A stretch of DNA of 64,000 nucleotides from Rickettsiales bacterium. Lineage in GTDB: Bacteria > Pseudomonadota > Alphaproteobacteria > Rickettsiales > JABSSG01. Position numbers and translations under genes: made by a program. Location: contig JABSSG010000014.1 of NCBI GenBank assembly GCA_013214525.1, positions 169,503-233,502 of the forward strand, given 5' to 3'. Below, in pieces: positions 1 to 17,918 of the stretch; positions within the stretch are counted from its first letter, which is position 1, and each line of letters begins with the position of its first letter. Under the pieces are notes generated by a model. It was not told the origin of the DNA. It made no database searches and was given only the letters and a program-made list of their open reading frames with translations.

Positions 1-1304
1 CATCTTGCACCGATCACATCTACTGCTGCTTTTCCTTTTGATCTTAGATGTGGTTCTGCAGGAATAAAGCTCATTTCTTTTGTGATATCGAAAAAAGAAT
101 ATTTGAAGGTTTTTGTTAGACCGTATTGTAAACCTCCTACCATTACAGTCATAAAAAATATATCGAGTCCATATTGGTTGGCATAAGGTGTTATATAATC
201 TCCAAAAAACGAGAATAAGAAAAATAGCGTTCCTACAATAGCCATTGAAACTGGAAGTATCATAGTGCCGAATAGCCATCCGAATGTTCTCAATACAAAT
301 CCACCGAGAAATAGACAAATCATAGCCCCTAGCCCAACATATGTTGTAATCTGACCCATGAAACGAGAGTAGCTTACCGTATCAGTATATAATTGACCAG
401 TTCTCATTCTCCACACACCCTCAAATAAGTTTAGACAAGTACCATATGACATTATTGCGATAACAATTAATAAAAGATATTTTGATGAAAGAATTATCTT
501 AAAACTCTCTATAACCGTTAATTTGGGTTTCAGTTCTTCTGCTTTTTTAGCAACAATGTTTTTAACATAATGTCTTCTTGCTTTAATAATATTGTATCTA
601 AGCATAATCATTGTCATTATAGTCATAAAACTTGCTATGATCATGGAGTTTTGGATAAAATATTCTTTATTTATCTTTGAGGTTAGAAAAGTAACAGCAA
701 GCCCAGAAGTAAAAGCACCAATATGTCCGATGAAAGAATAAGCAGGATATAATCTTTTTGCTTCTGATGTTTTGGTTGTTAAGTTTGCAAATTGCCAAAA
801 TAATAAAAATATCATAATTGAGCCCCAGATTTCAGCCATTACATAGTAAAGAGCAAAGGGCCATTTTCCATATATTTTTAAAAACCACTTAAAGTGATCT
901 AAATTAATCGTAAAAAAAAATAAATTGAGGTCGCTTTGTACGAGCTTTTCAATAGTGCTGGCATTTGCAGTAAAAAACTCTTGATTTGGGTGAAGGATAA
1001 AACCAAAGCATAAGAAAAATAATAAAAAAACTAAACCAAAATAATAAAATATTGTTTCAAATTTGAGTCTCTCCGATAGATAAGTATAAATAATGACAAC
1101 TAAAAGAGCAGCAGGCGTTACTGCATACATTTTTACGAAATTAGTGGCTTCTGGCCCGATATTTGTAACAATAAGAGAATCTTTTAAAGGCCTGAGGAAA
1201 TCATAATTGAACAAGATAAAAAAAAACATCATGCCCATCGAGATACATTTTTGTATTTCATCTTTATGGATAGGCATTAATGTGAAGGCAATTTTTTTTA
1301 ACAT
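1..1304 (-). CDS. tlc: ATP/ADP (nucleotide) translocase, NTT/Tlc family; 3' end runs out of the window
   Basis: Not in the ORF track. Manual translation from the ATG at 1304 gives MLKKIAFTLMPIHKDE...FNYDFLRPLKDSLIV...AEIWGS...LFWQFAN...KYSFFDITKEMSFIPAEPHLRSKGKAAVDVIGAR, all hallmark NTT motifs. Confidence 0.93.
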   Translation of the reverse strand, partial: MLKKIAFTLMPIHKDEIQKCISMGMMFFFILFNYDFLRPLKDSLIVTNIGPEATNFVKMYAVTPAALLVVIIYTYLSERLKFETIFYYFGLVFLLFFLCFGFILHPNQEFFTANASTIEKLVQSDLNLFFFTINLDHFKWFLKIYGKWPFALYYVMAEIWGSIMIFLLFWQFANLTTKTSEAKRLYPAYSFIGHIGAFTSGLAVTFLTSKINKEYFIQNSMIIASFMTIMTMIMLRYNIIKARRHYVKNIVAKKAEELKPKLTVIESFKIILSSKYLLLIVIAIMSYGTCLNLFEGVWRMRTGQLYTDTVSYSRFMGQITTYVGLGAMICLFLGGFVLRTFGWLFGTMILPVSMAIVGTLFFLFSFFGDYITPYANQYGLDIFFMTVMVGGLQYGLTKTFKYSFFDITKEMSFIPAEPHLRSKGKAAVDVIGAR

Positions 1305-1376
1305 GGCTTTTAAGTTGAGTTAAATTTTACTTAGTATATATTGATATTCATATCTTGCAAGTTATAAATTTTGAGC

Positions 1377-1940
1377 ATGGCTATAAAAAATACATTAAAG
1401 ATGTTAGATGATATTTTAATAACGGGGGTAAGCAAAGAAAAAGGAAATTACCCTATTAATAAACTTGAAGCACATGTTGAAGGGGTATTTCATCTAGCGA
1501 TTTCTATATTTTTAATTAATGAAAAAGGAGAGCTTTTATTACAAAGAAGATCTTTGAGTAAATATCATTCTGAAGGTTTATGGGCTAATTCATGTTGTAG
1601 CCATCCTTCATTTGGTGAAAATGAAGAGGGGTGTGCCTATCGTAGATTGAAAGAAGAGCTTGGTGTACAAAGTAACCTAACTACAATCAATAAAATTGAC
1701 TATAAATGTGATGTTGGAAATTTAATAGAGAATGAAAGGGTAACGTGGTTTAGGGGTTTTTTGGATTCCAGCCAAGTCATTGATTTTAATAAAGAAGAAG
1801 TTATGGATGTGAGTTGGATATCCATAGATAATCTTGAGAAGGCAGTTAAAGAAAAGCCGCAAATTTTTGCTAACTGGTTACATAGGTATTTGTCAGTTGG
1901 GCTTGTTGATATTTTACAGAGTAGTGTACAATATGTCTGA
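1377..1940 (+). CDS. idi: Isopentenyl-diphosphate delta-isomerase, type I (NUDIX fold)
   Basis: KLEAH..G.FHLAISIF, LLLQRRS..KYH, WANSCCSHP, RRLKEELG and ENE motifs. Start could be 1371, 1377 or 1401. Confidence 0.92.
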   Translation: MAIKNTLKMLDDILITGVSKEKGNYPINKLEAHVEGVFHLAISIFLINEKGELLLQRRSLSKYHSEGLWANSCCSHPSFGENEEGCAYRRLKEELGVQSNLTTINKIDYKCDVGNLIENERVTWFRGFLDSSQVIDFNKEEVMDVSWISIDNLEKAVKEKPQIFANWLHRYLSVGLVDILQSSVQYV

Positions 1941-2081
1941 AGTTTTCAGTTTTTAAGCATCATGGATATAAGAAATGTGTTTCATGGTATCCTTCATAAA
2001 TATATAGATTATTTAGCCTTTTTTCAATATAGTAGTAGCTTGCTAGAATAATAAACTCAATCTTAAATAAGAAAATTTTTG

Positions 2082-3131
2082 ATGTTAAATGACGTAGAGT
2101 CGGGCACAATGATTCCGACAAAGATTGTAAAATCTATAAAAGTAAAAGGTGTTTATGCAGAAGGTGATTTTTCTGTGCCTGTTGCAACTTATGAAACTAC
2201 TCTTTGGCCAAGTATACAACGTGGAGCTAATGTAACAAGTGATGCGGGTGGAATCAATGTTTCTGTGTTAAAAGATATTATGACTCGTTCTGTATTATTG
2301 GAAGCAGATAGAGTTAGCACTCCTGCTTCGATTGAAACAAGTTTAAAAGAAGCAATTATTGATATGCAGGAAGTTACTAAGTCTACTAGTGCTTTTTGTA
2401 GGTTGGAAAAGTTTGATACTAAAATATTAGGAAATTTAATATTTTTACGATTTACCTTTAATACAGGTGAAGCTTCAGGTCATAATATGACTACAAAAGC
2501 TTCAGATAGTTTAATTCAATGGATCTTAAAAAAACATGATGGTTTGAGATATATTTCAATATCGGGTAATTATTGTGTTGATAAAAAGAATTCTGCAGTT
2601 AACAGCATTATGGGGCGAGGGAAATATGTTGTTGCGGATGTAGAGATTAATCGTGATCTTTGTAAAAAATATCTAAGATCTACACCAGAAAAAATTGTAG
2701 ACATTAATATCAAAAAAAATCTTTTAGGGAGTATAGTTTCAGGAAGTGTATGTTCTGCAAATGCACATTTTGCTAATATTTTACTTGGTATTTATTTAAG
2801 TACTGGTCAAGATGCTGCTAATATTGTGGAGGGATCTCAAGGTGTAACTCATGCAGAAGTAAAAAATGGTAATTTATATTTCTCTGTAACTTTACCTAAT
2901 ATAATAATAGGGACAGTTGGGAATGGTAAAGATCTAAGTTTTGTGAAAAATAATCTCGAGATTATGGGATGTGCAGAGATAGCGAATAACTCTACAACTT
3001 CTAGAAAGCTTGCTTCTATAATTGCAGCAGCAGTGTTGTGTGGGGAGCTTTCTTTATTAGCTGCACAAACAAATCAAGGTGAACTTACAAAAAGCCATAT
3101 GTATTATGAACGAGGTACAAAGAATGCATAG
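2082..3131 (+). CDS. mvaA: HMG-CoA reductase, catalytic-domain-only bacterial type
   Basis: VPVATYETTLWPS, TGEASGHNMTT, SISGNYCVDKK, GRGK, TGQDAANIVEGSQG, GTVGNGK, CGELSLLAA and C-terminal His. Confidence 0.93.
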   Translation: MLNDVESGTMIPTKIVKSIKVKGVYAEGDFSVPVATYETTLWPSIQRGANVTSDAGGINVSVLKDIMTRSVLLEADRVSTPASIETSLKEAIIDMQEVTKSTSAFCRLEKFDTKILGNLIFLRFTFNTGEASGHNMTTKASDSLIQWILKKHDGLRYISISGNYCVDKKNSAVNSIMGRGKYVVADVEINRDLCKKYLRSTPEKIVDINIKKNLLGSIVSGSVCSANAHFANILLGIYLSTGQDAANIVEGSQGVTHAEVKNGNLYFSVTLPNIIIGTVGNGKDLSFVKNNLEIMGCAEIANNSTTSRKLASIIAAAVLCGELSLLAAQTNQGELTKSHMYYERGTKNA

Positions 3132-4323
3132 TTGTAAATCACGAAACTATAAAGTTGGTATAGATGCAATAAAATTTTATGTGCCAAACTATGTATTGAA
3201 TTTGTCTGATTTAGCAGAAGCTAGAAATATACATGATAATAAGTATAAAAATTCATATGGCCAGGAAAAAATGTCTGTGCCGTCTATAGATGAGGATATT
3301 GTTACAATGTCAGCAAATGCTGCTATAGAGGTTATGAAAGATGTTAATAAGGATGAGATAGGATTTTTAATTTTAGCGACTGAAACAGGTATTGATGCTT
3401 CTAAATCAGCAGGGATGTTTATTCATAGATTGCTTAATTTACCGAAGGATTGCAGAGTATTAGAGTTGAAACAAGCATGTTATAGTGGGACAGGTGGAAT
3501 AGCGTTAAGCATACCATTTTTACGTCAAAATCCTAATAAGAAAATATTACTAATTACAGCTGATATTGCTAAATATACTATTTGTAGTGCCGCTGAATCT
3601 TCAGGTGGTGCTGCTGCGGTTGCTATGATCTTGTCTGTTAACCCTCGTATTTTAGAAATAGAACAACCGAGCGGCGTATACACGGAAGATAGCATGGATT
3701 TCTGGCGTCCTAATTATGCAGAGGAACCAATATTAAATAGTAAATTATCTTGCAATTTATATATGAAGTTTTTATGTGAGTCTTTTGATGATTATATAAA
3801 AAAAGGCGGTACTAATTTAGATAATATAGATTATTTTTGTTATCATTTATCTGTACCTAGATTGACAATTACTGCTCATAAGCGTCTATATAAATATATT
3901 AAAAATAAATCTATAACAAATGAGGTTCTAAAGAGGCATATTGAGGCTTCGTCTATATATGGTAAACATATAGGGAATTGTTACACAGCTTCTTTATATC
4001 TCAGCTTAATTTCTCTTCTGGACAATGAATCATGTGATCTTTCTGGAAAGAGAATTGCCTTTTATAGTTATGGATCAGGTAGCATTAGTGAATTTTTTTC
4101 TGGTGTAGTAAAAACAAAATACAAAGATTATATTGATCCTGAATATAATAAGAAGCTTATAGATAGACGAGAAAAAATTTCTGTAGAGCAATATGAAAAA
4201 TGGCATAGATATTTATATCCGACGGATGGTTCAAAACTAGAATTACCAATCTTGAAGAAAAATGGTTATAGATTGTCTGGTTTTGAAAAACACATGAGAA
4301 TATATGAAGAAAATAGTAGCTAA
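3124..4323 (+). CDS. mvaS: HMG-CoA synthase
   Basis: VGIDAI, EDIVTM, ATETGIDASKS, ELKQACYSGT (catalytic Cys), DFWRPNY, GNCYTASLY and SYGSG. The ATG at 3124 follows GAGG and overlaps the HMGR stop. Confidence 0.94.
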   Translation: MHSCKSRNYKVGIDAIKFYVPNYVLNLSDLAEARNIHDNKYKNSYGQEKMSVPSIDEDIVTMSANAAIEVMKDVNKDEIGFLILATETGIDASKSAGMFIHRLLNLPKDCRVLELKQACYSGTGGIALSIPFLRQNPNKKILLITADIAKYTICSAAESSGGAAAVAMILSVNPRILEIEQPSGVYTEDSMDFWRPNYAEEPILNSKLSCNLYMKFLCESFDDYIKKGGTNLDNIDYFCYHLSVPRLTITAHKRLYKYIKNKSITNEVLKRHIEASSIYGKHIGNCYTASLYLSLISLLDNESCDLSGKRIAFYSYGSGSISEFFSGVVKTKYKDYIDPEYNKKLIDRREKISVEQYEKWHRYLYPTDGSKLELPILKKNGYRLSGFEKHMRIYEENSS

Positions 4324-5311
4324 AGCTCCAGGGAAATTAATTTTGACAGGAGAGTATTCAGTTCTTTATAACATGCCAGCAATTGTTTTTACAATAGACA
4401 AGGCTACTACAACTACGGCGAAATTATTAGAGGATAAAATTGTAGTTATAGAGCTAAAAGATTTTAATTTAATAGAAAGTTTCTCACAATATTTTTTAAA
4501 TAGACGTTATTTGTTTATACGAAATAAATACAATCAATTTTTATCAGGAGTATTGTCAATAGATAAAGTATTAGAGATTCCTGTAGATGTATGTTGTTTT
4601 TTAATTGGATATATTTTTGATAGGTTTAAAATAAAGCAGGGCATAGAACTATCTATAGAATCTACTATTCCTATAGGTGCTGGTTTTGGATCTTCTGCCG
4701 CTTTTGTTGTTAGTCTGCTTAAATCATTGGATGCCCTTTTTAGTCTGAATTTGAATCAAGAAGAATTTTTTCAAATTGCTTTGAAGGGCGAAAAGTTGAT
4801 ACATGGTAGTTCAAGTGGAGTTGATGTCAGAGCATCTTTGATAGGTGGCAGTAATTATTTGGATGGTGGTATTTCTGCTATAGATATAAAAGATTTTGAA
4901 TTTTTTTCTATTTTTACAGGCAAACCTGAAGCATCTACAGGAGAGTCAATCTCAAAAGTAAAGAATATATTAAAAACATCAGATAAATTACAAATGTTTA
5001 AAAAAGTTGCATTAAAGCTTAAAGATGCAATTGAGAATAAAAATTTATTAGATGTTATGTCTCAAATTAAAACTAACCATGCTTTGCTTAAAGAATTAGG
5101 TGTAGTACCCCAAAAAGTTCAAGAGTTCATAAAGGAAATAGAAGCAAACAATTGTGCCGCTAAAATATCCGGTAGTGGTGCTGTCGCAGGAGAGAATGCT
5201 GGTGTCGTGATCTCAATGGGTAATTTTACCTCCATAAGCAAGATTGCTAAAAAATTTGGTTATACTGTGAGTAAAATTAAGCAATCTAGTAAAGGTGCTT
5301 ATGCTTTATAA
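4304..5311 (+). CDS. mvk: Mevalonate kinase (GHMP family)
   Basis: APGKLILTGEYSVLY, IPIGAGFGSSAA, HGSSSGVD, AKISGSG, plus operon context. Confidence 0.88.
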   Translation: MKKIVAKAPGKLILTGEYSVLYNMPAIVFTIDKATTTTAKLLEDKIVVIELKDFNLIESFSQYFLNRRYLFIRNKYNQFLSGVLSIDKVLEIPVDVCCFLIGYIFDRFKIKQGIELSIESTIPIGAGFGSSAAFVVSLLKSLDALFSLNLNQEEFFQIALKGEKLIHGSSSGVDVRASLIGGSNYLDGGISAIDIKDFEFFSIFTGKPEASTGESISKVKNILKTSDKLQMFKKVALKLKDAIENKNLLDVMSQIKTNHALLKELGVVPQKVQEFIKEIEANNCAAKISGSGAVAGENAGVVISMGNFTSISKIAKKFGYTVSKIKQSSKGAYAL

Positions 5312-7247
5312 AACAAAAACTCTCGGTAGTATTATGATAATGGGAGAACATAGTGTTTTGCATTCTCATCCTTCTATAGCAGCATCTATTGATAAATATA
5401 TTTATGTTACTGTAAAAAAAAATAATCTTAGAAAAATCCATATAAATTCTGATTATTTTGGTAAATATGAAACATATATTTCTCAAATAAAACCATCTAA
5501 AGATTTTGATATTATTTTAGCGGTTCTGGAAAAATATAGAGAATTTTTGAGCGAAGGTATTGATGTTGAGGTTAAATCAGATTTTTCTCCTGAATTTGGT
5601 CTAGGGTCTTCTACGGCAGTGCTTGTAGGTGTTATTTCTAGTTTAATGTTGATGCTTAAGAGAAAAATAACAAAACAAGAACTTTTGCTAGAAGCTATTA
5701 CTATTCTTAAAAAAATTAGAGGAGCTGCATCTGGTAGCGATATAGCAGCAAGTATTTATGAGGGAGTAATTTATTTTGACCCTAGAAGCTATGTAGTAGA
5801 AAGGATAGCAGATTATTTACCAATAATAGTTGCCTATTCTGGATATAAAACCAAAACAGAAGATGTGATTAAGAAAATTAATTTTGAATCTCAGGATCAT
5901 CATTTAGATATCGATGATATTTATTTAAAAAATGGTAATCTGACCAAAGAAGCTGCAATAGCAATTCGTAATAAAGATTATGTTAAATTGGGAATGATTA
6001 TGAAGTTTTCAAATGATATTCTTTACAAGCAGCTAAATTTAGTGACTGATGAGCTACAAGATATCTTAGAAAAATTTAAAAAAGAAAAATCTATCTATGG
6101 TGCAAAAATATCGGGAGCAGGTCTTGGTGATTGTGCAATAGCTCTTTCTAAAAACACAAAGTCTTGCGTTTTTATGGATATGCAAACATTGCCAGTTTCT
6201 ATAGCATCTAATTTTATAAATAAAATATCTATAACGGAAGATGAGGTAGGTTTAAAAAAAATAGATATAGTAAAGAAAATATTAGGCAACAAACTATATA
6301 ATAAATCTAGTAAAAGATCTGCAACTGCATTTGCTCCTTCAAATATTGCTATTTGTAAATATTGGGGCAAAAGGAATGAAGAATTGCATTTGCCTGTAAA
6401 TAGCAGTTTGTCTATTTCTTTAAATAATCTAGGGTCTAAGACAACAATATCTTTAGCTGAAGAAGATAAAGTTGAATTAAATGGACATATTTTAAATTCT
6501 TCAGATCAGTTTGCATCTAAAATATTTGATTTCATAAATTTGTTTAGACAACAGAATAACTTTAAGTTGTTCGTTAAGATTCAGTCGAATATTCCAATTG
6601 CTGCAGGGCTTGCTTCTTCAGCTGCGGGTTTTGCCGCATTGACTTTGGTGCTTAATAATTTTTTTGATTGGCAACTGAATACTAAAGAATTATCTATATT
6701 GGCAAGGTTAGGAAGTGGTAGTGCTGCACGTTCTATTGAAAGAGGCTTTATTAAATGGCATAAGGGTTCTAGGGAAGATGGCATGGATAGCTATACAGAA
6801 AAACTTTTATTAAACTGGTCTGATTTGTGTTGTGGTATATTGATCGTGAGTAAACAGGAAAAACATATTTCATCTAGGGATGCTATGAAAATAACAAAAG
6901 AGACCTCGCCTCTTTTTAAAACATGGTCTAACAAGGCTATGCAAGATATACATCTTCTTATTTCTGCAATAAAAAGAAAAAACTTTGTGCAATTTGGTGA
7001 AATTTTGGAAGCTAATTCAAATAGCATGCATAAAATGATGGCTACGTCTTCTCCTAGCTTGATTTACAAAAATTCCTCTACGGAGAAATTAATTTCTAAA
7101 ATAAAATCTTGTAGAACAAAAATGGAAATTCCAGTATTTTATACGCAAGATGCTGGACCTAATTTAGTAATCTTTTTTGAAAAGAAAAATTTTTTAAAGG
7201 TCAAAACTTTCTTTTCTAATGAAGCTATGATTTGTGAGCCAGTTTGA
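5301..7247 (+). CDS. Fused phosphomevalonate kinase (N-terminal half) and diphosphomevalonate decarboxylase (C-terminal half)
   Basis: N-half is a GHMP kinase (GSIMIMGEHSVL, GLGSSTAV, SGSDIAAS, KISGAGLGDC). C-half is MVD (APSNIAICKYWGKR, LPVNSSLSISL, AAGLASSAAGFAAL, ARLGSGSAARS, TQDAGPN). One continuous frame. Confidence 0.9.
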   Translation: MLYKTKTLGSIMIMGEHSVLHSHPSIAASIDKYIYVTVKKNNLRKIHINSDYFGKYETYISQIKPSKDFDIILAVLEKYREFLSEGIDVEVKSDFSPEFGLGSSTAVLVGVISSLMLMLKRKITKQELLLEAITILKKIRGAASGSDIAASIYEGVIYFDPRSYVVERIADYLPIIVAYSGYKTKTEDVIKKINFESQDHHLDIDDIYLKNGNLTKEAAIAIRNKDYVKLGMIMKFSNDILYKQLNLVTDELQDILEKFKKEKSIYGAKISGAGLGDCAIALSKNTKSCVFMDMQTLPVSIASNFINKISITEDEVGLKKIDIVKKILGNKLYNKSSKRSATAFAPSNIAICKYWGKRNEELHLPVNSSLSISLNNLGSKTTISLAEEDKVELNGHILNSSDQFASKIFDFINLFRQQNNFKLFVKIQSNIPIAAGLASSAAGFAALTLVLNNFFDWQLNTKELSILARLGSGSAARSIERGFIKWHKGSREDGMDSYTEKLLLNWSDLCCGILIVSKQEKHISSRDAMKITKETSPLFKTWSNKAMQDIHLLISAIKRKNFVQFGEILEANSNSMHKMMATSSPSLIYKNSSTEKLISKIKSCRTKMEIPVFYTQDAGPNLVIFFEKKNFLKVKTFFSNEAMICEPV

Positions 7248-7307
7248 AATAGGGACACTCATCGTGTTTGAGGATTTTAATTTTTAAATTTTATATTTAA
7301 AATATTT

Positions 7308-8009
7308 ATGAAAAGTTTCAATGCTCCAAAACATATAGCATTTATAATGGATGGCAATAGACGTTGGGCAAAATCACGAGGTCTACCAACTATAGAAGGG
7401 CATAGAAAAGCTGTACAAAATGTTACTAAGATTGTTGAGGTTTCTGATAAAATTGGTATAGAGTATCTTACTTTTTATATGTTCTCTTCAGAAAATTGGT
7501 ATAGATCTGCTGAGGAGGTGAAAGGCTTAATGTCTTTATTTGAATTTTATATCAAAAAAGAGAGTAATAAGTTACTTGAGAAAAATGCTAAAGTAACATT
7601 TATTGGGAATCTATCTAAACTTCCATCTAATCTTCAAAGGATGGTTGAAGACTTAATGGAAAAATCTAGTAAAAATTCAGGGATACATGTAATATTAGCG
7701 GTAAGTTATGGTAGTAGAGAAGAAATATTACGTGCTGCCAAAGAAATGGCTATACAATATAAGCAGGGATCTTATTCTCTTGATAAGATTGATGAAAATT
7801 TATTTAAAAGATTTCTGTATGTTGATGTTCCTGATCCTGATTTATTGATTAGATCTGGTGGTGAAGTTAGAATCAGTAATTATTTATTATGGCAAATAGC
7901 ATATACAGAGCTATATTTTATAGAAAAACATTGGCCTGATTTTACTGTTGAGGATTTAGAGGAAGCAATATTAGAATTTCAAAGAAGAGAGAGGCGATAT
8001 GGTAGGTAA
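7308..8009 (+). CDS. uppS: Undecaprenyl diphosphate synthase
   Basis: PKHIAFIMDGNRRWA, FSSENWYR, DPDLLIRSGGEVRISNYLLWQ, RRERRYG. Confidence 0.97.
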   Translation: MKSFNAPKHIAFIMDGNRRWAKSRGLPTIEGHRKAVQNVTKIVEVSDKIGIEYLTFYMFSSENWYRSAEEVKGLMSLFEFYIKKESNKLLEKNAKVTFIGNLSKLPSNLQRMVEDLMEKSSKNSGIHVILAVSYGSREEILRAAKEMAIQYKQGSYSLDKIDENLFKRFLYVDVPDPDLLIRSGGEVRISNYLLWQIAYTELYFIEKHWPDFTVEDLEEAILEFQRRERRYGR

Positions 8010-8670
8010 AATTAATTTGAAGAATAATAATTTAATTATGCGGAGTATATCTGCTATTTTACTAATACCATTGGTAATTTATATTATTTTAGATGGATCT
8101 ATAATTTTTTATGCTTCCATAGGATTAATAGCTGTATTAATGGCTACAGAATGGCGTCGTATAATAAGAAACCTAAAGCAGAAATTTAGATGGACTGTAT
8201 TTGCATTAATTTATATCACCTTATTTGTAGTGTCTTTAGTTTGGATTAGATATCAAGAAATGGGTAAATCTTTATTATTATGGTTGATTGTTACTACTTG
8301 GATGGCAGATACTGGTGCTTTTATTTTTGGCAAAATAATAGGAGGCGCTAAGCTTGTTCCCAAAATTAGTCCTAAAAAAACTTGGGCAGGTTTAATAGGA
8401 GCGATAATGTTTGCTGGTGTGAGTGGTCTCATTTTTAGTAAAAGCTTAAATATGTTTGATACTTATAAATTTATTTGGTTTACTATAGTGTTGGGTATCT
8501 TAGCTCAATTAGGTGATTTATCTGTATCTTGGGTTAAAAGAAAGGCTGATATAAAAAATAGTGGTGAAATTATTCCAGGTCACGGAGGGATTTTAGATAG
8601 AGTAGATAGTTTGACAATGTGTTCTGTTATATTAGCTGTATTTTTGATTTTTTTTAGACATTGTTTATAG
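7999..8670 (+). CDS. cdsA: Phosphatidate cytidylyltransferase
   Basis: DTGAF..GK, ISPKKTWAG, GDLSVSWVKR, IPGHGGILDRVDS. Confidence 0.96.
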   Translation: MVGKINLKNNNLIMRSISAILLIPLVIYIILDGSIIFYASIGLIAVLMATEWRRIIRNLKQKFRWTVFALIYITLFVVSLVWIRYQEMGKSLLLWLIVTTWMADTGAFIFGKIIGGAKLVPKISPKKTWAGLIGAIMFAGVSGLIFSKSLNMFDTYKFIWFTIVLGILAQLGDLSVSWVKRKADIKNSGEIIPGHGGILDRVDSLTMCSVILAVFLIFFRHCL

Positions 8671-8830
8671 TATCTTAGAGAAGTATATATAAAGAAGCAG
8701 GTTATTCTTTTGCTTATTAGAAGATGTTAATAATATTTATTTTTCCTCTGAATTTTTTAAAAAATAAATTGATATAGTAATATAAATGAAGATAATAGGG
8801 TATGTGTAATTAAAAAATTATTTTCATAAA

Positions 8831-10150
8831 ATGACTACCGTAGACTTACAAAATATAAAAGAACAAATTAATGCATTATCTTATAGTCAGAAAAAATATG
8901 CATGGCGAGCATTTGAGATTTTAAAAGACACAGAATATATTAATCGATCTCCAAAATTTGTCTCTCAGTATCATATATGGGTGCTTGAGGAATACGAGTC
9001 GGAGCATGCACTGATTGCAGTTAAGATAGGTGATGCGTTAAATGCGTTAGGGTATAATCAACAGAATAAAGCTTGGGAAACTATAAAAATGTTAGGTCAT
9101 GAAGAATATGAGAAAGCTTTATCAATTTATCAATCTATTAAAGCGTTATCATATGGTCAACCAAAATATGCATGGCAAGCATTTGAGATTTTAAAAGACA
9201 CAGAATATGTTAGTCAATCTCCAAAGTTTACTTCTCAGTATCATATTCGGATGCTTGAAGAGTATGGGAATAATAAAGTTAAATTTGTTCTTAGCGTATT
9301 TGATAGAATTAGATTGAAAGAGCTTAATGAAAATCAAAAAAATATTCTTTGTGATGTTGTTATTTCTTTAAAGGAAGATGAGCACATTGCGAATAAAATT
9401 CTTGATATGCTAATGCATGAAAATTTTTTTATAGTAGCTTTACAAGATTTGGAATTTGTCAGAGATATATTGACTGAATATACTGAAATTAAGTATCTAA
9501 TTGATCAAAGTGACTTTATAAAAACTCAGTTTACAGAAGAACAAATAGATAGGTTAAGTAAAAAAGGCATATTAGATCAGTTCCCACTATTATTACATCC
9601 TAGTAGTGATGAGTTTGAAAATATAAATATAAATACAGTACGATATGTTTTAGAAACTGGTTATGATTCAAGTTATAGAGATAAATTAGGGAATGCACCT
9701 AAACATTTATCGATTTGTTCTGCGTATAATCAAATGATGTATAAAATTAGTCAATGTTCTCGAAGTATGATTTTTAATGATGATATAAAGTGCAATTTCA
9801 ATACTTATCATGATGAAGTTAATAATAAGCCAAAGCAGTATGAATATGAGTGTGAACAATCTACTACGATTCAAGGTACTGTCATTGATTGGAGTTCTAG
9901 CACTAGTGGTGTAGGGATATCTTATAAATGCAAGCATGAAATATCCTCAGGGGTAGAGAGATTCAGCGTCAGTGATATTGAGATTATGCAAAACCGAATA
10001 TTTGACTCAACCTATGTAAAGCTATTAACTGAGTATAGTTCTGAAGATGAGCAAACTAACATTTTAGGGCAGAATATATCGTTTATACAGAACTTTTGTC
10101 ATGAGTTATCTGGTGATAAGAGTGATATTTTATTGCATGATGAACTTTAA
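8831..10150 (+). CDS. Orphan protein with an internal ~43-aa repeat, ending in HDEL; candidate effector
   Basis: 439-aa ORF with no recognisable family motif; carries an internal duplication. Confidence 0.75.
   Translation: MTTVDLQNIKEQINALSYSQKKYAWRAFEILKDTEYINRSPKFVSQYHIWVLEEYESEHALIAVKIGDALNALGYNQQNKAWETIKMLGHEEYEKALSIYQSIKALSYGQPKYAWQAFEILKDTEYVSQSPKFTSQYHIRMLEEYGNNKVKFVLSVFDRIRLKELNENQKNILCDVVISLKEDEHIANKILDMLMHENFFIVALQDLEFVRDILTEYTEIKYLIDQSDFIKTQFTEEQIDRLSKKGILDQFPLLLHPSSDEFENININTVRYVLETGYDSSYRDKLGNAPKHLSICSAYNQMMYKISQCSRSMIFNDDIKCNFNTYHDEVNNKPKQYEYECEQSTTIQGTVIDWSSSTSGVGISYKCKHEISSGVERFSVSDIEIMQNRIFDSTYVKLLTEYSSEDEQTNILGQNISFIQNFCHELSGDKSDILLHDEL
8867..9265 (+). repeat. Intragenic direct repeat (~8867-8995 vs ~9137-9265, 270-bp period)
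   Basis: INALSYSQKKYAWRAFEILKDTEYINRSPKFVSQYHIWVLEEY vs IKALSYGQPKYAWQAFEILKDTEYVSQSPKFTSQYHIRMLEEY, with a degenerate partial unit (LNALGYNQQNKAWETIKML) in between. Confidence 0.9.
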
Positions 10151-10322
10151 TGTTAGTTATAAAAAAATACCATATTAAAAGATAGTATACTTAAGTAACT
10201 CAAAAAATTTTCTTGATATATTTGAAATAGTCAGTACTCTTCTTGGGAGAATAGTTTTTACTGAAGTCTAAAGTGAAAACAAAATAATTTACGTACAGAA
10301 TTTTTTAGTTATCTTAGATAAA

Positions 10323-11411
10323 ATGATTGAGACTTTGTATAATATTCTATCTTTTTTACTTGTCATTTCGATTATTGTGTTTACGCATGAGCTTGGTCAT
10401 TATATAGCGGCAAGAATCTTTGGAGTAAAGGTCATTGATTTTGCTATAGGTTGGGGGCCTAAAATTTTTAGTATCAAAGATAAGGCAGGTACTAATTGGA
10501 AACTCTGTGCAATTCCAATTGGTGGTTATATAAAATATTTTGGAGATACTAATATTAGTAGTATTAGCTCAACAGGGAAAAAACTTTCTGAAAAGGAAAA
10601 GAAACAATCTTTTGTAGCACAGAGTTCATGGAAGAAAAGCATAATGGCTGCTGCTGGTCCTATGGGAAATTTTTTAGTGGCTATTATTATTTTTACTTAT
10701 TTTTTTGCTTTTCATGGCAAGTTAGTTTCAGAGAATGAGGTAACTTTTGTTGCACCTAATAGTGTTGCACAGAGAGAAGGCATTGAAATAGGAGATAGAA
10801 TTAAAAAAATTGAGGGAAGTGAAGTATCTGACTTTTCAGATATTGAACGATATGTAAAGACGAGTCCTAATATTCCTCTTCATTTGGAGATAGAAAGAAA
10901 TGGTCAAGTTATTAAGAAGATAATTACTCCCGAAGCTGTAGAGATTGAGAATGATGTAGAAAAGATAACAATTGGTAAGATTGGTATCGGTTCAAATAAA
11001 GTTAGAAGAGAAGTATATAGTTTACCAAAAGCAGTTATAGTTTCTGTTCAGGAGGTAATAAAGACAAGTGTTTTTACATTAAAAAGTTTAGGGCAGATGA
11101 TTACTGGTCATAGAGGTACAAAAGAATTAGCTAGCGTGATTAGAATATCTAAATATTCAGGTATGGTTATAAAACAAAGTTTTGCAAGCTTCATATGGTT
11201 TATAGCAATACTTTCCATAAATTTAGGTTTAGTAAATTTATTTCCAGTGCCTCCTTTGGATGGAGGGCATATATTTTTATACGCTGTTAAGGGTATAACT
11301 AGCAAAAAAATATATAATTATATTGAGCTTTATACGGTAAGAATCGGTATAGTACTGTTAATAGCTCTTATGATATTTGGACTTTTCAATGATATTTTTT
11401 ATACAAAATAA
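10323..11411 (+). CDS. rseP: RIP metalloprotease RseP
   Basis: HELGH, PDZ domain, NLFPVPPLDGGH. Confidence 0.96.
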   Translation: MIETLYNILSFLLVISIIVFTHELGHYIAARIFGVKVIDFAIGWGPKIFSIKDKAGTNWKLCAIPIGGYIKYFGDTNISSISSTGKKLSEKEKKQSFVAQSSWKKSIMAAAGPMGNFLVAIIIFTYFFAFHGKLVSENEVTFVAPNSVAQREGIEIGDRIKKIEGSEVSDFSDIERYVKTSPNIPLHLEIERNGQVIKKIITPEAVEIENDVEKITIGKIGIGSNKVRREVYSLPKAVIVSVQEVIKTSVFTLKSLGQMITGHRGTKELASVIRISKYSGMVIKQSFASFIWFIAILSINLGLVNLFPVPPLDGGHIFLYAVKGITSKKIYNYIELYTVRIGIVLLIALMIFGLFNDIFYTK

Positions 11412-11418
11412 GTTTGAT

Positions 11419-13761
11419 ATGAGAGGAATAAAGCACCTTATTTTGCTGTTGATCACTATTTTTGTGATGCAATTTGCTCATCTGGGTTATGCGGAAGATG
11501 CTAATGTTATTAAAGACATTCAAATTAAAGGTGCTAAACGTACAGAAAATTCAACAATTATTTCTTATTCTGAGCTTGAGACGGGTCAAGTATATAGTGC
11601 AACTATAGCTGACGCTGTTTTAAAAAAATTATATGGTACAGGTTTTTTTGCAAATGTATCTGTTTCCTTTGATAAAGGGATTGTGACTATTGTAGTTGAA
11701 GAGAATCCTATAGTAGGTAGAATTAGTTTTAAAGGTAACAAGTCTCTGAAGCCTGAAAATATTCTTCCAGAAATTTCTTTACAAACTAGAGGGTATTTTT
11801 CTAAGAATAAATTACAAAGTGATGTAAACCGTATTTTAGGGTTATATAATAAGATTGGTATATTTTCTGTCACTGTAAAACCTAAAATATCAAAGCTTGC
11901 ACAAAATAGAGTCAATGTGTTGTTTGAAATTTATGAGGGCAGCAAACTTAAGATAGAAAAAATTTCTTTTATAGGTAATAAAAGATTTTCTAGTAACGAT
12001 CTAAAGCAGGCACTTGTTTCCAAAGAGAACAGAATTTTTAATATATTCCGGCTTAATTACTATAATGCTGATGCGATAGAATATGACAAAGTATTGTTAA
12101 AGAAGTTTTATAACTCAAAGGGTTATGCAAATTTTAGAACAGTATCTGTAAGTGCTGATATAGATCCTGCAGACATGGAGAAGGTATATATTACCTTTAT
12201 TATAGATGAGGGAGCCAAGTATGATTTTGGTAAGATCAATATTAATAATAAGATTTCGACCATTGGTACAGCTGATCTTATGCAGTTAGTGAAGATAAAA
12301 TCTGGTAAAACATTTAATGGTAATGCTGTAGAAGATGCAAATACCAGAATAATAAAATATTTAGCAGAAAAAGGATTTCCTTTTGTAAAAGTTGATTATG
12401 AATATAAGTTAAAGAAAGAAAAGAAATTAGTTGATGTGTATTATAAGGTATCTAGATCACCTAAAGTGTATATAGGTAAAATTAATATAAGTGGCAATGA
12501 AAAAACTTATGATTATGTTGTAAGGAGTGAATTTAGACTTTCGGAAGGAGATCCTTATAATGGATTCTTAGTTGATAGGTCTGAGCAACGTGTAAGAAAT
12601 TTAAATTATTTTAGAAAGGTCACTGTTACGCCAGTTAAAACTAATAAGTCTGATGTAGTTGATTTAGATGTAAAGGTACAAGAAAAATCTACGGCAAGTA
12701 TAAAGCTTGCTGTGGGCTACTCAACTAGCAATGGTCCTATGGCAATGATTAATTTTTCAGAAATAAATTGGTTAGGACGTGGGCAAAAATTATCATTTGG
12801 GATACAAAAAACTACGTTCACTTTAGGTGCAAATTTTGGGTATAGTGAACCTAACTTTATGGGCAGTGAAGTAGAAGTAGGAGGAGGTGTAGGGTTTTCT
12901 CAGCAGAAAAATGATACTAAAGGAGGATTAGCTGGATTAGCATCAGATCACTCTCAAGTGCCATTTAATGAAGATAGCTACTCTGCTAATGTTTTTATGA
13001 ATTATGATGTGACTGAATATCTTAACCATAATGTAGATTATTCGATTACTAGTACCAAGACTTCTTCATCTGCGAATAGTGATATTCCTGAGATTACTCA
13101 AAGAGAGGTCGGTAAAAATATAATTTCTGCTATCGGTCATACATTGACTTATAATGTAGCAGATAGTGCGGTCAAACCAACAGATGGTTATATAATCACA
13201 TTAAATCAGCATTTAGCTGGAGTAGGGGGTGATGTGAAGCATCTTAGACATGTGTTGAAAGGAGCATATTATTATCCAATAATGGAAGATTTAACTTTGA
13301 AAATTGCTGCAGAAGGAGGGTATATACATAAAATGTTTGGTGATGATGCCGTAAGGATTAGTGATAATTTTTACTTGGGGGATTTTTCCTTCAGAGGTTT
13401 TGATTATGCTGGTTTAGGGCCTAGAGATAAAGGTAAAAGAAAAATGGCATTGGGTGCTGTTAAATATTATAAAGGTTCGACAGAATTACTGTTCCCATTC
13501 CCAGGAGTTTCAAGAGATTTAGATCTTTCTACGTCTATATTTTCAGACTTTGGTTCTGCGTGGGATATAGATATACCTAAGAATGTTAATTATACAAGGG
13601 AAGATTACTTTAATAAGAAGACAATTCGAGCTTCAGCAGGTGTTGGTTTTATATGGATTACTAGAGCTGGTCCTTTGCGGATAGATTTTGCTCATGCTTT
13701 CAAAAAAGAATCATTTGATGAAACAAAATTGATTTTATTCTCATATCAGACTGCATTATAA
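11419..13761 (+). CDS. bamA: Outer membrane protein assembly factor BamA
   Basis: Signal peptide, POTRA-like repeats, FRGF motif and GPLRIDFA; lies after rseP. Confidence 0.95.
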   Translation: MRGIKHLILLLITIFVMQFAHLGYAEDANVIKDIQIKGAKRTENSTIISYSELETGQVYSATIADAVLKKLYGTGFFANVSVSFDKGIVTIVVEENPIVGRISFKGNKSLKPENILPEISLQTRGYFSKNKLQSDVNRILGLYNKIGIFSVTVKPKISKLAQNRVNVLFEIYEGSKLKIEKISFIGNKRFSSNDLKQALVSKENRIFNIFRLNYYNADAIEYDKVLLKKFYNSKGYANFRTVSVSADIDPADMEKVYITFIIDEGAKYDFGKININNKISTIGTADLMQLVKIKSGKTFNGNAVEDANTRIIKYLAEKGFPFVKVDYEYKLKKEKKLVDVYYKVSRSPKVYIGKINISGNEKTYDYVVRSEFRLSEGDPYNGFLVDRSEQRVRNLNYFRKVTVTPVKTNKSDVVDLDVKVQEKSTASIKLAVGYSTSNGPMAMINFSEINWLGRGQKLSFGIQKTTFTLGANFGYSEPNFMGSEVEVGGGVGFSQQKNDTKGGLAGLASDHSQVPFNEDSYSANVFMNYDVTEYLNHNVDYSITSTKTSSSANSDIPEITQREVGKNIISAIGHTLTYNVADSAVKPTDGYIITLNQHLAGVGGDVKHLRHVLKGAYYYPIMEDLTLKIAAEGGYIHKMFGDDAVRISDNFYLGDFSFRGFDYAGLGPRDKGKRKMALGAVKYYKGSTELLFPFPGVSRDLDLSTSIFSDFGSAWDIDIPKNVNYTREDYFNKKTIRASAGVGFIWITRAGPLRIDFAHAFKKESFDETKLILFSYQTAL

Positions 13762-13882
13762 ACTGCAGTTATAGATTACAAAAACATTATATTTTTGTCT
13801 ATTTTTGTTGCAAATAAGTACTAATTTTCGCTAAAAATATCCTAAAACTCTAAAATCTTTCTAATCCATAACTGGGGTTATA
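13757..13882. mobile_element. MITE-like element, family 2
   Basis: Left arm tataaactgcagttatagatta pairs with right arm taatccataactggggttata. The internal gtctatttttgttgcaaat recurs inverted near 29085-29105. Confidence 0.6.
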
Positions 13883-13944
13883 AACCTGTATACCATTTCT
13901 TAAAAAATATGTTATCATATGATTCGCAAGTGATACGGAGTAAT

Positions 13945-14511
13945 ATGGTTAGAGCATTATTTTTGATAACTGTTTTTTTAGGGATAATTGGATCTAGTTA
14001 TAGTTATTCTACGGCAGTTTCTTGGAAGGGTTCTCAACGTAAGCAGGTGGATAATAATTTACAATATGTTATTTTGGATATTGATAGAGTTGTTAATAAT
14101 TCAATAGCATATAAGAAATTTAAAGATAAATGGGCTAAAATAAATGATAGATATCAAAAAGAAATAGAGTTTTATGAATCTCAATTGTTGAAATTAGAGA
14201 GGAGAGCTACGAGTAAAGGAGTAAGCGAGAAAGATATGATACAAGTGAAGCAAAAGATAGGTGTTTATGAAGTTAAAGTACAGAAGTTACTGCGTAAGAG
14301 AAAAGAAGTTTTGGAAAAAGCTGGCAATAAGGCTATTGCAATACTTAGAGAAAATATAGATAAATTAATTTATGAATATGCAACGCAAAATAATATTAAT
14401 ATTATATTTTCTAAAGACCAAGTAGTGTATTTTTCAAATTCAATTGATATAACTAGTTTTATCTTAGAAAAATTGAATGTTAATTTACGTCAGTTAGAGG
14501 TAGATATATAA
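13945..14511 (+). CDS. skp: OmpH/Skp periplasmic chaperone
   Basis: Between bamA and lpxD; signal peptide, LDIDRVVNNS, coiled coil and DITSFIL C-terminus. GGAG precedes the ATG at 13945. Confidence 0.8.
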   Translation: MVRALFLITVFLGIIGSSYSYSTAVSWKGSQRKQVDNNLQYVILDIDRVVNNSIAYKKFKDKWAKINDRYQKEIEFYESQLLKLERRATSKGVSEKDMIQVKQKIGVYEVKVQKLLRKRKEVLEKAGNKAIAILRENIDKLIYEYATQNNINIIFSKDQVVYFSNSIDITSFILEKLNVNLRQLEVDI

Positions 14512-15563
14512 TGGCAAAGTTTAATAAGTCAGTCTCTTTACTTGAGATTAAGACTAACTTATCTGTAGAGATATGTAATAATATTGGTGTTGTTGTTGAA
14601 GATGAACAGTTAGGAAAAATTTTTGTAAATGGTGTTTCTACTTTAGAACAAGCTTCTGAAACTAGTATTTCTTTTTTCTATGGTAAAGAAAAACATAAAA
14701 ATGCCTTATTAAAAACCAAAGCTAGGGCATGTATTATTGATCGTAGTTCTTTGGAAAGATTTAATTTAAATTTACCGCAAGAAATATATTTTGTTGTAGT
14801 TAAAGACGTCAATATGGCGTTTGCAGAAATAATGAGGTTATTTTATCTTGAAGTTCAAACGTTAAAGGAAAATATTTCAAAGAATGCTTGTATAGATGAG
14901 TCAGCAATTATAGGTAAGAATTGTCAGATAATGCATGGAAGCTATATAGGTAAGAATGTAAAAATTGGTGATAATGTACAGATATATCCAAATGTATTTA
15001 TAGGTGATGATGTTGAGTTAGGCAATAACTGTATTATATTTCATGCTGCAACTATTTTTCATACAATTACAGGTAATGATGTTATTATTCATAGTGGAGC
15101 TAGATTAGGCAAAGATGGATTTAGATATGTTACAAATGAGTTAGGTCAGCATATTAAAGTACCTCATATTGGTAAAGTAATTATAGGCAATGATGTTGAA
15201 ATAGGAGCAAATTCTACGATAGATAGAGGAAGTATATCAAATACAATCATAGGGGATATGTGCAAGCTTGATAATTTAGTTCAGATAGGGCATAATGTAG
15301 TACTTGGGAAGGGATGTATAGTGGTGTCTCAGGTTGGTATAGCAGGAAGTGTTGTTGTTGGAGATTATGTTGCTATTGGTGGTCAAGCAGGAATAGCAGA
15401 TAATGTTTCAATTGCAAGCTATTCTAAAATAGCTGCTCAGTCTGGGGTGATGAAAAACACCCTTGAGAAGGAAGTTGTTATGGGTAGTCCAGCACAACCG
15501 ATAAAAGATTTTTTTAGACAAGTGGTAGCAATAAAAAAAATTACTAAAGGAGAAAAAATATGA
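14511..15563 (+). CDS. lpxD: UDP-3-O-acyl-glucosamine N-acyltransferase
   Basis: Hexapeptide repeats, DGFRY, EIGANSTIDRG, KLDNLVQIGHNV. Confidence 0.96.
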   Translation: MAKFNKSVSLLEIKTNLSVEICNNIGVVVEDEQLGKIFVNGVSTLEQASETSISFFYGKEKHKNALLKTKARACIIDRSSLERFNLNLPQEIYFVVVKDVNMAFAEIMRLFYLEVQTLKENISKNACIDESAIIGKNCQIMHGSYIGKNVKIGDNVQIYPNVFIGDDVELGNNCIIFHAATIFHTITGNDVIIHSGARLGKDGFRYVTNELGQHIKVPHIGKVIIGNDVEIGANSTIDRGSISNTIIGDMCKLDNLVQIGHNVVLGKGCIVVSQVGIAGSVVVGDYVAIGGQAGIADNVSIASYSKIAAQSGVMKNTLEKEVVMGSPAQPIKDFFRQVVAIKKITKGEKI

Positions 15564-16015
15564 TCATAGAAAAAGAAAAAACTATATTGGAATATGAAGA
15601 TATAATACAAACCATTCCTCATAGACCACCTTTCTTATTTGTTGATAGAATAATAGAATTAAATAAGAATAAGAGTGCAGTTGGTATAAAAAATGTTTCA
15701 ATTAACGAACAATTTTTTGCAGGTCATTTCCCCCAAAAACCAGTTATGCCAGGTGTATTAATTGTAGAAGCTCTTGCACAAACTGCAGCAATTTTAGTCT
15801 ATAGATCGCTAGAAGATGAAAAAGCTAATAGAGGTGTGTTATTTACGCATATTGATTTTGTTAAATTTAGAAGAGTGGTAATACCTGGTGATCAATTAAT
15901 TTTAGAAGTTTCAATACTGAAAAATAAATTAGGATTTTGTAAATGTGCTGGTCGTGCTCGTGTAAATGAAGAAATTGCAGTTGAATCAGAGTTTACTGCA
16001 AAGTTAGCAAATTAA
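15560..16015 (+). CDS. fabZ: 3-hydroxyacyl-ACP dehydratase
   Basis: IPHRPPFLFVDR and GHFPQKPVMPGVLIVEALAQ. Confidence 0.97.
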   Translation: MIIEKEKTILEYEDIIQTIPHRPPFLFVDRIIELNKNKSAVGIKNVSINEQFFAGHFPQKPVMPGVLIVEALAQTAAILVYRSLEDEKANRGVLFTHIDFVKFRRVVIPGDQLILEVSILKNKLGFCKCAGRARVNEEIAVESEFTAKLAN

Positions 16016-16029
16016 TTAGGTTTGGGCAT

Positions 16030-17704: not shown

Positions 17705-17726
17705 GTTGTTTTAGGTATAATTAATA

Positions 17727-17890
17727 TATACTAACCATACCTGAAGACTCTAGTTTTTAAGTTTGAAAATGAAACTACTATCTTCCTTTAAAAATGTCTT
17801 AAATATCAACGATATTTGCTAATTTTTAAACTTGATATTAATTCTATTTTCTTTCTTTAAAACTAGGGTTCTTCAAGTACGAAGAGTATA
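17727..17890 (+). mobile_element. MITE-like element, family 1, full length with mismatched (chimeric) ends
   Basis: The ~165-bp core (tttttaagtttgaaaatgaaactactatcttc...cttcaag) is shared with the copies at 22920, 39517, 48625 and 49613; TATA at both ends. Confidence 0.85.
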
Positions 17891-17918
17891 CTCTAGTATC
17901 TGTTCTGTAGAAATTTAA

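Follow-up and report, generated by a model that had tools for sequence, protein, structure and literature searches.

A horizontally acquired mevalonate operon placed before uppS has very probably replaced the MEP pathway in a marine Rickettsiales-like bacterium

Gene content and integrity of the locus

The stretch of DNA considered here, a segment of 64,000 nucleotides (nt) from assembly GCA_013214525.1 (genome G000) that is referred to below as the window, carries five open reading frames (ORFs) of the mevalonate (MVA) pathway directly before uppS, a consumer of isoprenoid precursors. The organism is small, uncultured, marine, and Rickettsiales-like; its draft genome is 95.69% complete with 0.83% contamination and a GC content of 30.8%, and the sequencing runs that contain its sequence are marine sediment and marine metagenomes. 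The cluster consists of idi, HMG-CoA reductase (HMGR), HMG-CoA synthase (HMGS), a GHMP-type kinase (K1), and a second kinase (K2) fused to mevalonate diphosphate decarboxylase (MVD) (Table 1). Downstream of uppS and cdsA, an orphan ORF lies in the position that in relatives is held by dxr, a gene of the MEP (2-C-methyl-D-erythritol 4-phosphate) pathway, and rseP and bamA follow.

Table 1. Features of the window (positions counted from its first letter) and sites elsewhere in G000, with profile scores and, in brackets, the family cut-offs in bits
Feature	Position	Strand	Evidence and remarks
Window	C6:169503-233502		G000; 1,268,679 bp in 31 contigs
TLC ATP/ADP transporter	3..1304	-	PF03219 382 bits; divergent left neighbour of the MVA cluster
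idi, type I Nudix	1377..1940	+	NF002995 116.9 bits (127); TIGR02150 93.7 bits (105.8); PF00293 62.8 bits
HMG-CoA reductase	2082..3131	+	PF00368 291 bits (27); TIGR00533 316 bits (441.8)
HMG-CoA synthase	3124..4323	+	TIGR01835 412.3 bits (360.35)
GHMP kinase K1	4304..5311	+	TIGR00549 154.9 bits (163)
K2-MVD fusion, one 648-aa ORF	5301..7247	+	K2: GHMP_kinases_N and GHMP_kinases_C over residues 74-287, TIGR00549 190.2 bits (163); MVD: TIGR01240 267.1 bits (171.35) over residues 344-641
MVD-uppS spacer, 60 nt	7248..7307		AT-rich; without terminator-like hairpin
uppS	7308..8009	+	TIGR00055 265 bits; native
cdsA	7999..8670	+	PF01148 172 bits; native
Orphan ORF, 439 aa	8831..10150	+	no Pfam/NCBIfam match; occupies the dxr position of relatives
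rseP	10323..11411	+	TIGR00054 246 bits; native
bamA	11377..13761	+	TIGR03303 649 bits; native
ompH-like gene, lpxD, fabZ	right of bamA	+	part of the same plus-strand run
Thiolase	C1:7485-8738		Thiolase_N 302 bits; Thiolase_C 175 bits; outside the cluster
zapA (ancestral ispA site)	C17:203975-204244		contig-internal
miaB (ancestral ispA site)	C31:504-1889		contig-internal
OmpA-family gene (ancestral ispB site)	C13:47553-47939		contig-internal
RNase HII gene (ancestral site)	C17:187771-188139		contig-internal

The first-pass annotation had placed the five MVA genes co-directionally before uppS, with stop-start overlaps from HMGR through MVD, a 60-bp gap to uppS, and an unrelated gene between cdsA and rseP; ORFs and family matches agree with it on every one of these points. 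The overlaps amount to 8 nt (HMGR/HMGS), 20 nt (HMGS/K1), and 11 nt (K1/K2-MVD), and these four genes are predicted to be translationally coupled. The idi gene runs in the same direction and is uncoupled, being separated from HMGR by 141 nt (1941-2081). The MVD stop lies 60 nt from the uppS start, and a sequence scan found no terminator-like site between them; a scan for promoter-like sites returned 72, against 63 +/- 7 expected, and neither scan counts as evidence for co-transcription. No RNA run is among those listed as containing the sequence, and nothing from the RNA run X4 aligned to it. Mobile-element scars (a repeat family, a tRNA-like scar, or a copy of a miniature inverted-repeat transposable element) were found in none of the five intergenic spacers, the sole spacer match elsewhere being 35 nt of the MVD-uppS spacer at 89% identity.

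The initial worry that the assembly might be chimeric at about 7250 has been dispelled by contigs from two sequencing runs. A contig from run X1 (38,449 nt, depth 20.1, Logan), which is possibly the source sample of G000, matches window positions 1-8937 with zero differences and ends only at an internal repeat of the orphan. In run X2, which belongs to a separate study and contains a related strain with 90-99% identity to the window, one contig joins 7092-7247 to 7297-7402 and keeps MVD and uppS adjacent, this strain having 7 letters in place of 49 nt of the spacer (between 7247 and 7297). Because this contig from a second study spans MVD to uppS, the junction is no chimera. Moreover, GC, GC3 (GC at third codon positions), and GC skew are uniform over the region, including both junctions of the MVA block. 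The MVA genes have GC values of 0.30-0.33 and GC3 values of 0.18-0.25, against genome values of 0.314 +/- 0.024 and 0.196 +/- 0.028, respectively, over 499 long ORFs; since they thus carry the genome's own composition, their acquisition appears to be old.

The envelope genes downstream belong to the host lineage. Their identities to relatives of the same family are 46-53% for uppS, 39-44% for cdsA, 41-44% for rseP, and 44-46% for bamA, and all four are far less similar to the copies in a Legionella-like metagenome-assembled genome (MAG), L058. A tree of UppS sequences unites the window with all five of the family relatives (support 88).

The mevalonate enzymes

HMGS and MVD score above the cut-offs of their NCBIfam families, and the HMGS start at 3124 agrees with a 399-aa database form. 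HMGR exceeds the cut-off of its Pfam model and aligns full-length with homologues of its clade, with which it shares its N-terminus and length (approx. 349 aa; of the 11 clade members aligned, most have such a short form of approx. 350 aa). Its best NCBIfam model is TIGR00533, the NADPH type, and among solved structures its best match is 6hr7 (238 bits), the human catalytic domain scoring 209 bits; the six structures at E <= 1e-10 are all labelled simply as HMG-CoA reductase, the class of each being unstated. On these matches, the reductase is a class I enzyme, nearer to the NADPH-type enzymes of archaea and eukaryotes than to class II, the Pseudomonas-like type. The best models for idi are those of the type I enzyme, and the protein is 34-43% identical to the idi products of related clusters.

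Both kinases resemble mevalonate kinases, with which the top solved structures for K1 and for K2 agree. Because the operon of Paracoccus zeaxanthinifaciens has mvk and pmk at the corresponding positions, and on this ground alone, K1 is assigned as the putative mevalonate kinase (MVK) and K2 as the putative phosphomevalonate kinase (PMK). At least 15 fused PMK-MVD proteins are among the matches listed, so that the fusion is not unique: four metagenome proteins are 58-64% identical to it and others 35-40%, and fusions within a single high-scoring segment pair (HSP) occur at loci L038, L039, L040, L043, and L118. In many of the nearest homologues of MVD, the fusion partner is instead a Nudix (idi) domain.

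As had been noticed at the outset, the cluster lacks a thiolase gene. One was found elsewhere in the genome (Table 1), with orthologues of 59-66% identity in seven of nine relatives of the same family; because this thiolase is native, the first step of the pathway was already present before the acquisition. An ORF beside it (G000:C1:8684-9715; L152:3684-4715) has a weak PhaC_N match of 23.6 bits, a hint that the native thiolase may stand in a polyhydroxyalkanoate-related context. The enzyme activities and the flux toward isopentenyl diphosphate (IPP) discussed below are predictions from sequence.

Absence of the MEP pathway and the ancestral gene order

Family searches of the whole genome returned no match for dxr, ispG, ispH, or ispF in G000, and nothing above the cut-offs for the other three MEP genes: the dxs model matched only other proteins (28-65 bits), the matches of 53-65 bits perhaps being pyruvate-dehydrogenase or transketolase-type enzymes; ispD matches did not exceed 43 bits; and the ispE model matched only the two MVA kinases. 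Altogether, none of the seven MEP genes (0/7) passes its family cut-off, as the first-pass annotation had expected in proposing that the MEP pathway was replaced. As a control, the same cut-offs are passed in 9-10 of 14 reference genomes. A remnant of dxr was sought by tblastn with the Dxr proteins of five relatives, the best E value being 0.026 genome-wide and 0.21 within 8600-10400.

The relatives present the reverse picture. Of 40 genomes searched (10 of the same family and 30 of the same order), 36 have dxr above the cut-off, including all 10 of the family, and none has HMGS above its cut-off, the weak matches being ORFs of approx. 320 aa with at most 45 bits. The order uppS-cdsA-dxr is found in all five family relatives inspected, and rseP-bamA follows dxr in four of them, ndk taking that place in G004. 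Thus, of the alphaproteobacterial order frr-uppS-cdsA-dxr-rseP-bamA assumed at first, the part from uppS to dxr holds throughout and rseP-bamA in 4/5, whereas frr is absent upstream of uppS in the five relatives. Compared with this ancestral cluster, the dxr slot of G000 is now taken by the orphan.

Origin and distribution of the operon

The nearest relatives of the window's operon are metagenomic. Five metagenome homologues of HMGS are 71-73% identical to it, and three sisters of the fusion protein and three of HMGS are probably located on the same contigs, as they share the contig sizes 111,383, 54,632, and 7,110; a scan of metagenome contigs with the fusion protein recovered a single, distant locus (L118). 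In the set of species-representative genomes, the nearest clusters are those of Gammaproteobacteria MAGs, Coxiellaceae MAGs, and the Legionella-like MAG, with identities of 50-57% for HMGR, 44-50% for HMGS, and 45-49% for MVD (L046, L047, L050, L052, L058, L083). The same gene order occurs in P. zeaxanthinifaciens, 'Ca. Liberibacter europaeus', Oceanospirillaceae, and Piscirickettsiaceae, and also in Calditrichota, Verrucomicrobia, and Lentisphaeria MAGs; these homologous clusters bear out the earlier statement that similar ones exist in Coxiella, Legionella, Paracoccus, and Liberibacter. It has been inferred that the MVA clade of Gammaproteobacteria, Verrucomicrobia, and Lentisphaerae had a single origin and then spread horizontally, according to the part of the study available (Hoshino & Gaucher 2018, PMC6107057). 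By placement and gene order, the MVA genes of the window probably fall in this mixed clade, the members of which recovered here are from Gammaproteobacteria, Verrucomicrobia, Lentisphaeria, Calditrichota, Paracoccus, and Liberibacter.

Within the order, 400 genomes were sampled (one unscored) at an HMGS threshold of E <= 1e-30. Matches were found in 12 of the 399 other genomes, distributed over three families (f23, 9/28; f19, 2/39; f26, 1/39, a weak match), and HMGS exceeds the family cut-off in three of the 12. In the five MVA-bearing genomes of the order that were tested for dxr (86-98% complete), it was found in none. The order HMGR-HMGS-K1-K2-MVD is common to the window, G352, and G184; G400 shares HMGS-K1-K2-MVD, HMGR not having been found in the stretch examined. 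In G352, a member of f19, HMGS is covered by two HSPs that abut at 10628 (L133, 10628-10834), and this split may stem from a frameshift or from misassembly.

Trees were built by quick searches with SH-aLRT support values. The HMGS tree comprises 42 rows; it excludes HSPs that cover less than 70% of the query and also the short loci L119-L130, seven of whose genomes are represented by longer stretches. The window falls in a group (support 98) of gammaproteobacterial MAGs and two f19 genomes, and the f23 rows stand apart on long branches. A three-gene tree (HMGS, K2, and MVD) has 26 rows, namely the window, 22 loci chosen from approx. 90, and three metagenome sisters. In it, the window and these sisters form a clade with a support of 100 and a stem length of 1.0, which is nested in a group of 14 rows (support 99) made up of gammaproteobacterial MAGs and the two f19 genomes; the latter join the Legionella-like MAG (support 99). 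An earlier concatenated tree, which joined the window and the f23 row G184 at the root, was judged to reflect long-branch attraction and was rebuilt without f23 and with the three sisters.

The MVA genes thus depart from the species tree, as had been anticipated. The phylogenetic neighbourhood points clearly to a Coxiellaceae/Legionella-like gammaproteobacterial pool as the source; the donor that the first-pass annotation had hoped to find by trees can be named at this level, but a closer one cannot. The trees are compatible with one or with several entries of MVA genes into Rickettsiales.

Replacement of the MEP pathway and alternative explanations

What G000 contains and lacks, the order of its genes, their occurrence in relatives, and the position of the MVA genes in the trees are best explained by a horizontally acquired MVA operon that was sited before the native uppS and very probably replaced the MEP pathway, all seven genes of which have been lost. 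In this scenario, an ancestor would have gained the complete operon of idi, class I HMGR, HMGS, MVK, and PMK-MVD from the Coxiellaceae/Legionella-like pool, and the operon would have been inserted immediately before the native uppS-cdsA-dxr-rseP-bamA block. With the pre-existing thiolase supplying acetoacetyl-CoA, the new route would provide IPP and dimethylallyl diphosphate (DMAPP), which would have permitted the loss of all seven MEP genes and a clean replacement of dxr by the unrelated, fast-evolving orphan. The products would serve UppS, for the bactoprenol of the envelope, and MiaA, for tRNA modification; ispA, ispB, and both UbiA-family enzymes would have been lost as well. We infer the order of gain and loss, the co-transcription with uppS, and the source of the allylic primer for UppS.

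Several observations weigh against this reading. HMGR, idi, and K1 all fall below the equivalog cut-offs of their best NCBIfam models (Table 1). The HMGR motif GDASGHNM reads GEASGHNM in G000 (window 2400-2425), the Asp, presumably the catalytic one, being present in 10 of the 11 other aligned HMGRs; only G184, a genome of f23, shares the Glu. No FPP (farnesyl diphosphate) synthase was found in G000, so that a canonical UppS would not be primed by the pathway's own products. G000 is a draft of 31 contigs, and the absence of MEP genes is to be read against its completeness of 95.7%. Finally, for the Rickettsiales symbiont 'Ca. Sarmatiella mevalonica', Castelli et al. in 2021 reportedly proposed the use of host intermediates or operation of the pathway in reverse.

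It is possible, though doubtful, that MVA genes entered Rickettsiales once and were then transferred between its lineages. A tree constrained to unite the window clade with the f19 genomes is worse by 12.1 log-likelihood units, but the approximately unbiased (AU) test does not reject it (p = 0.198), and the HMGS tree joins G352, G400, the Legionella-like MAG, and the window in an unresolved group with a support of 89. However, the three-gene tree, when unconstrained, joins f19 to the Legionella-like MAG and leaves the window clade, with its long stem, without a resolved partner; moreover, idi is arranged differently, and none was found in the f19 stretches examined.

A functional alternative is that the operon mainly salvages host mevalonate or HMG-CoA, or runs in reverse to acetyl-CoA. 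The organism looks host-dependent, two TLC ATP/ADP transporter genes adjoin the cluster, and the idea has been raised for Sarmatiella (PMC11253213, in the part available). Nevertheless, thiolase, HMGS, and HMGR are intact, the genes of the upper pathway are predicted to be translationally coupled to those of the lower one, and no other source of IPP was found in G000, which makes this alternative improbable.

That the cluster is ancestral to the order, vertically inherited and lost many times, is very unlikely. HMGS matches do occur in three families, and the gene order is common to G352, G184, and, for the most part, G400. However, the family relatives have HMGS in 0/10 and dxr in 10/10 genomes, the f23 sequences occupy separate long branches, f19 groups with the Legionella-like MAG, and the whole assemblage nests among Gammaproteobacteria, for whose mixed clade horizontal spread has been inferred (see above). 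It is equally hard to credit that the MVA pathway was added to an MEP pathway hidden in the unassembled 4% of the draft: all seven genes would need to sit in gaps, the ancestral dxr site lies within a 238-kb contig, where another gene is found without any remnant, and dxr is missing from 5/5 other MVA-bearing genomes of the order. An assembly or binning artefact, by which a foreign MVA block was joined at about 7250 or 1340, might be suspected in a MAG whose closest named homologues are gammaproteobacterial, but it is extremely improbable given the uniform depth of the X1 contig, the X2 contig that bridges MVD and uppS, and the uniform composition across both junctions with native genes on both flanks.

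Replacement by horizontal transfer is therefore well supported for G000, yet it is no first, Sarmatiella being a published precedent. What the present case adds is that the insertion site and the vacated dxr slot are both readable against five relatives with the ancestral layout. MVA-for-MEP swaps seem to be recurrent in Rickettsiales, as HMGS matches occur in three further families among the genomes sampled and the five of these genomes that were tested are without dxr. The swap would also change the drug targets of the organism: no target of fosmidomycin is predicted, and the reductase is of class I, which is the statin-sensitive class. A bacterium that makes its own IPP without an FPP synthase, moreover, poses the question of the bactoprenol primer.

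Comparison with known systems

Accounts of isoprenoid synthesis in Rickettsiales give the MVA pathway little room. The available part of PMC6107057 (2018) reports no Rickettsiales with an MVA pathway, and that of PMC6854040 (2019) finds it in none of six genera; in a 2026 review (PMC13001223), as far as its accessible text goes, Rickettsiales are treated only as a case of MEP loss and idi gain. The first MVA case in the order is 'Ca. Sarmatiella mevalonica' of the Rickettsiaceae (2021; Environ Microbiol 23:1684), as described in the accessible parts of PMC11253213 and PMC9098888. Literature searches on the mevalonate pathway with Rickettsiales and on Sarmatiella returned no paper describing the present lineage or a link to uppS. 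In Rickettsiales sequences obtained from metagenomes, which may include the present lineage, Castelli et al. in 2021 reportedly also saw unrelated MVA genes. The parallel to G000 is that Sarmatiella, a symbiont within Rickettsiales, carries a full mevalonate gene set gained by horizontal transfer; the two differ in that Sarmatiella has a GC content of 38% and a Paramecium host (PMC9539572, in part), whereas G000 has 30.8% GC and is marine. The size of 1.27 Mb that they have in common is a coincidence between different organisms (PMC9539572, in part). A further difference from Sarmatiella is that the 10 other members of the family of G000 all retain dxr.

The background assumed at first, in which Anaplasmataceae use the MEP pathway and Rickettsia relies on host isoprenoids, holds in the parts of PMC6854040 and PMC9803151 available. 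In particular, Rickettsia and Orientia have lost the MEP pathway and need host isoprenoids, and Rickettsia, without an FPP synthase, depends partly on host FPP (PMC6854040, in part). G000 resembles them in lacking the upstream MEP genes and an FPP synthase and in keeping uppS. In contrast, Rickettsia has no MVA genes and imports IPP, DMAPP, or FPP, whereas G000 is predicted to make IPP and DMAPP.

The Legionellales offer the closest parallel in enzyme type. Coxiella burnetii and Legionella pneumophila have MVA genes and no MEP genes, according to the accessible part of PMC9803151. With these and the related MAG clusters G000 shares a class I HMGR, a predicted type I idi, and the order HMGR-HMGS-K1-K2-MVD; it differs from them in that idi is upstream and co-directional rather than divergent or fused behind MVD, that PMK is fused to MVD, and that the host gene order is alphaproteobacterial. 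In the uncultured Legionella sp. MAG L058, positions 4622-19257 read uppS-cdsA-[approx. 1.5 kb]-HMGR-HMGS-K1-K2-MVD-idi-rseP-bamA. Here, independently of G000, an MVA operon is again physically tied to the envelope genes.

The operon of P. zeaxanthinifaciens contains mvaA, idi, hcs, mvk, pmk, and mvd (Humbelin 2002, cited in PMC7264872, in the part available). It resembles that of G000 in having HMGR, HMGS, two kinases, and MVD in the same order (L077), and differs in its placement on the tree's other major branch, with identities of only 28-50%. The gene list reportedly follows the gene order in the 2002 account by Humbelin, and the idi of this operon is presumably type II. Another difference is the gene of approx. 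1 kb between HMGR and HMGS, which is idi according to PMC7264872 (in part). In Rhodobacter sphaeroides, the Paracoccus operon has served as a laboratory substitute for the MEP pathway; the gene targeted was dxr, which in that species shares an operon with uppS, cdsA, and rseP (PMC7264872, in part). The engineered swap in Rhodobacter parallels the natural one proposed for G000.

Isoprenoid users and the priming of UppS

The losses in G000 extend beyond the MEP pathway. Polyprenyl synthases of PF00348 (ispA and ispB) have no match in G000, compared with one or two copies in 20/20 relatives searched, and tblastn with the IspA and IspB proteins of six relatives gave a best E value of 0.55. No member of the UbiA family, which we take to include UbiA and heme O synthase, was found in G000, compared with two or three in 12/12 relatives searched. 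MiaA is present. UppS and MiaA are therefore the sole predicted isoprenoid users found, which fits the placement of the operon before uppS. The pattern implies that no FPP, ubiquinone tail, or heme O would be made by the cell itself, and it suggests that the lineage may have given up quinone-dependent respiration.

The former sites of ispA and ispB can be located. The relative G002 has the order zapA-ispA-fur-miaB and carries ispB after an OmpA-family gene; G010 and G004 have the same neighbours, as judged by ORF order and matching hits in G000. In G000 itself, neither ispA nor ispB adjoins zapA, miaB, the OmpA-family gene, or the RNase HII gene that borders that region in the relatives, although all four are contig-internal, and because of this an assembly gap is unlikely to account for the two absences. 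A search for fur with one relative's protein as the query found no match in G000. Directly after zapA, in the place of ispA-fur in the relatives, G000 has a gene for a 536-aa pentapeptide-repeat protein (G000:C17:204345-205955; L149:1846-3456). The RNase HII ORF (L148:1771-2139) encodes 122 aa that cover profile positions 72-198 of 199, and it may be truncated at its 5' end or frameshifted.

Host FPP is the ordinary explanation for the priming of UppS, and priming by DMAPP the bolder one. A stronger proposal, which is held with little confidence, is that uppS together with the operon makes up an autonomous module for bactoprenol, without a trans-prenyl diphosphate synthase, in which UppS is primed by DMAPP or by host FPP. 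If so, chains primed with DMAPP would yield an unusual carrier lipid, or, in the variant with host FPP, the host would give the primer only and the bacterium eight IPP units; the MVA cluster within the envelope block of L058 would in that case suggest that a coupling of envelope synthesis to the supply of IPP has been selected for. Some plant cis-prenyltransferases among the solved matches of UppS use, we assume, DMAPP. The best solved match of the G000 protein is a chimera of tomato CPT1 (229.9 bits), against 220.3 bits for the Micrococcus luteus enzyme. This match was rejected as evidence on the primer: for two relatives and for P0251, the nearest homologue, bacterial UppS enzymes come out on top, and the differences are at most 20 bits.

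The orphan ORF and neighbouring genes

The orphan has no paralogue in G000. It contains an internal repeat of 128 nt (8867-8994 and 9137-9264) at 84% identity, and run X2 is without cover over 8833-9984, from which no inference was drawn. A fold from a single-sequence AlphaFold model was discarded at a pLDDT of 34.1. Features of the Atlas language model weakly suggest ankyrin-like repeats (score 0.92; recognition 1956, below the guide value of 2300), and this character may be taken as a weak lead. At a guess, the orphan could be a lineage-specific and possibly secreted repeat protein.

On its left side, the MVA cluster is bordered by a pair of TLC ATP/ADP transporter genes on the minus strand (G000:C6:168136-171305; L037:13136-15807 together with window 3-1304). 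The second copy, just outside the window, lies at L037:14317-15807 and scores 423.6 bits. These transporters, like the gene order, are grounds for placing the organism with Rickettsiales. Beyond the two transporter genes there is an aminotransferase gene.

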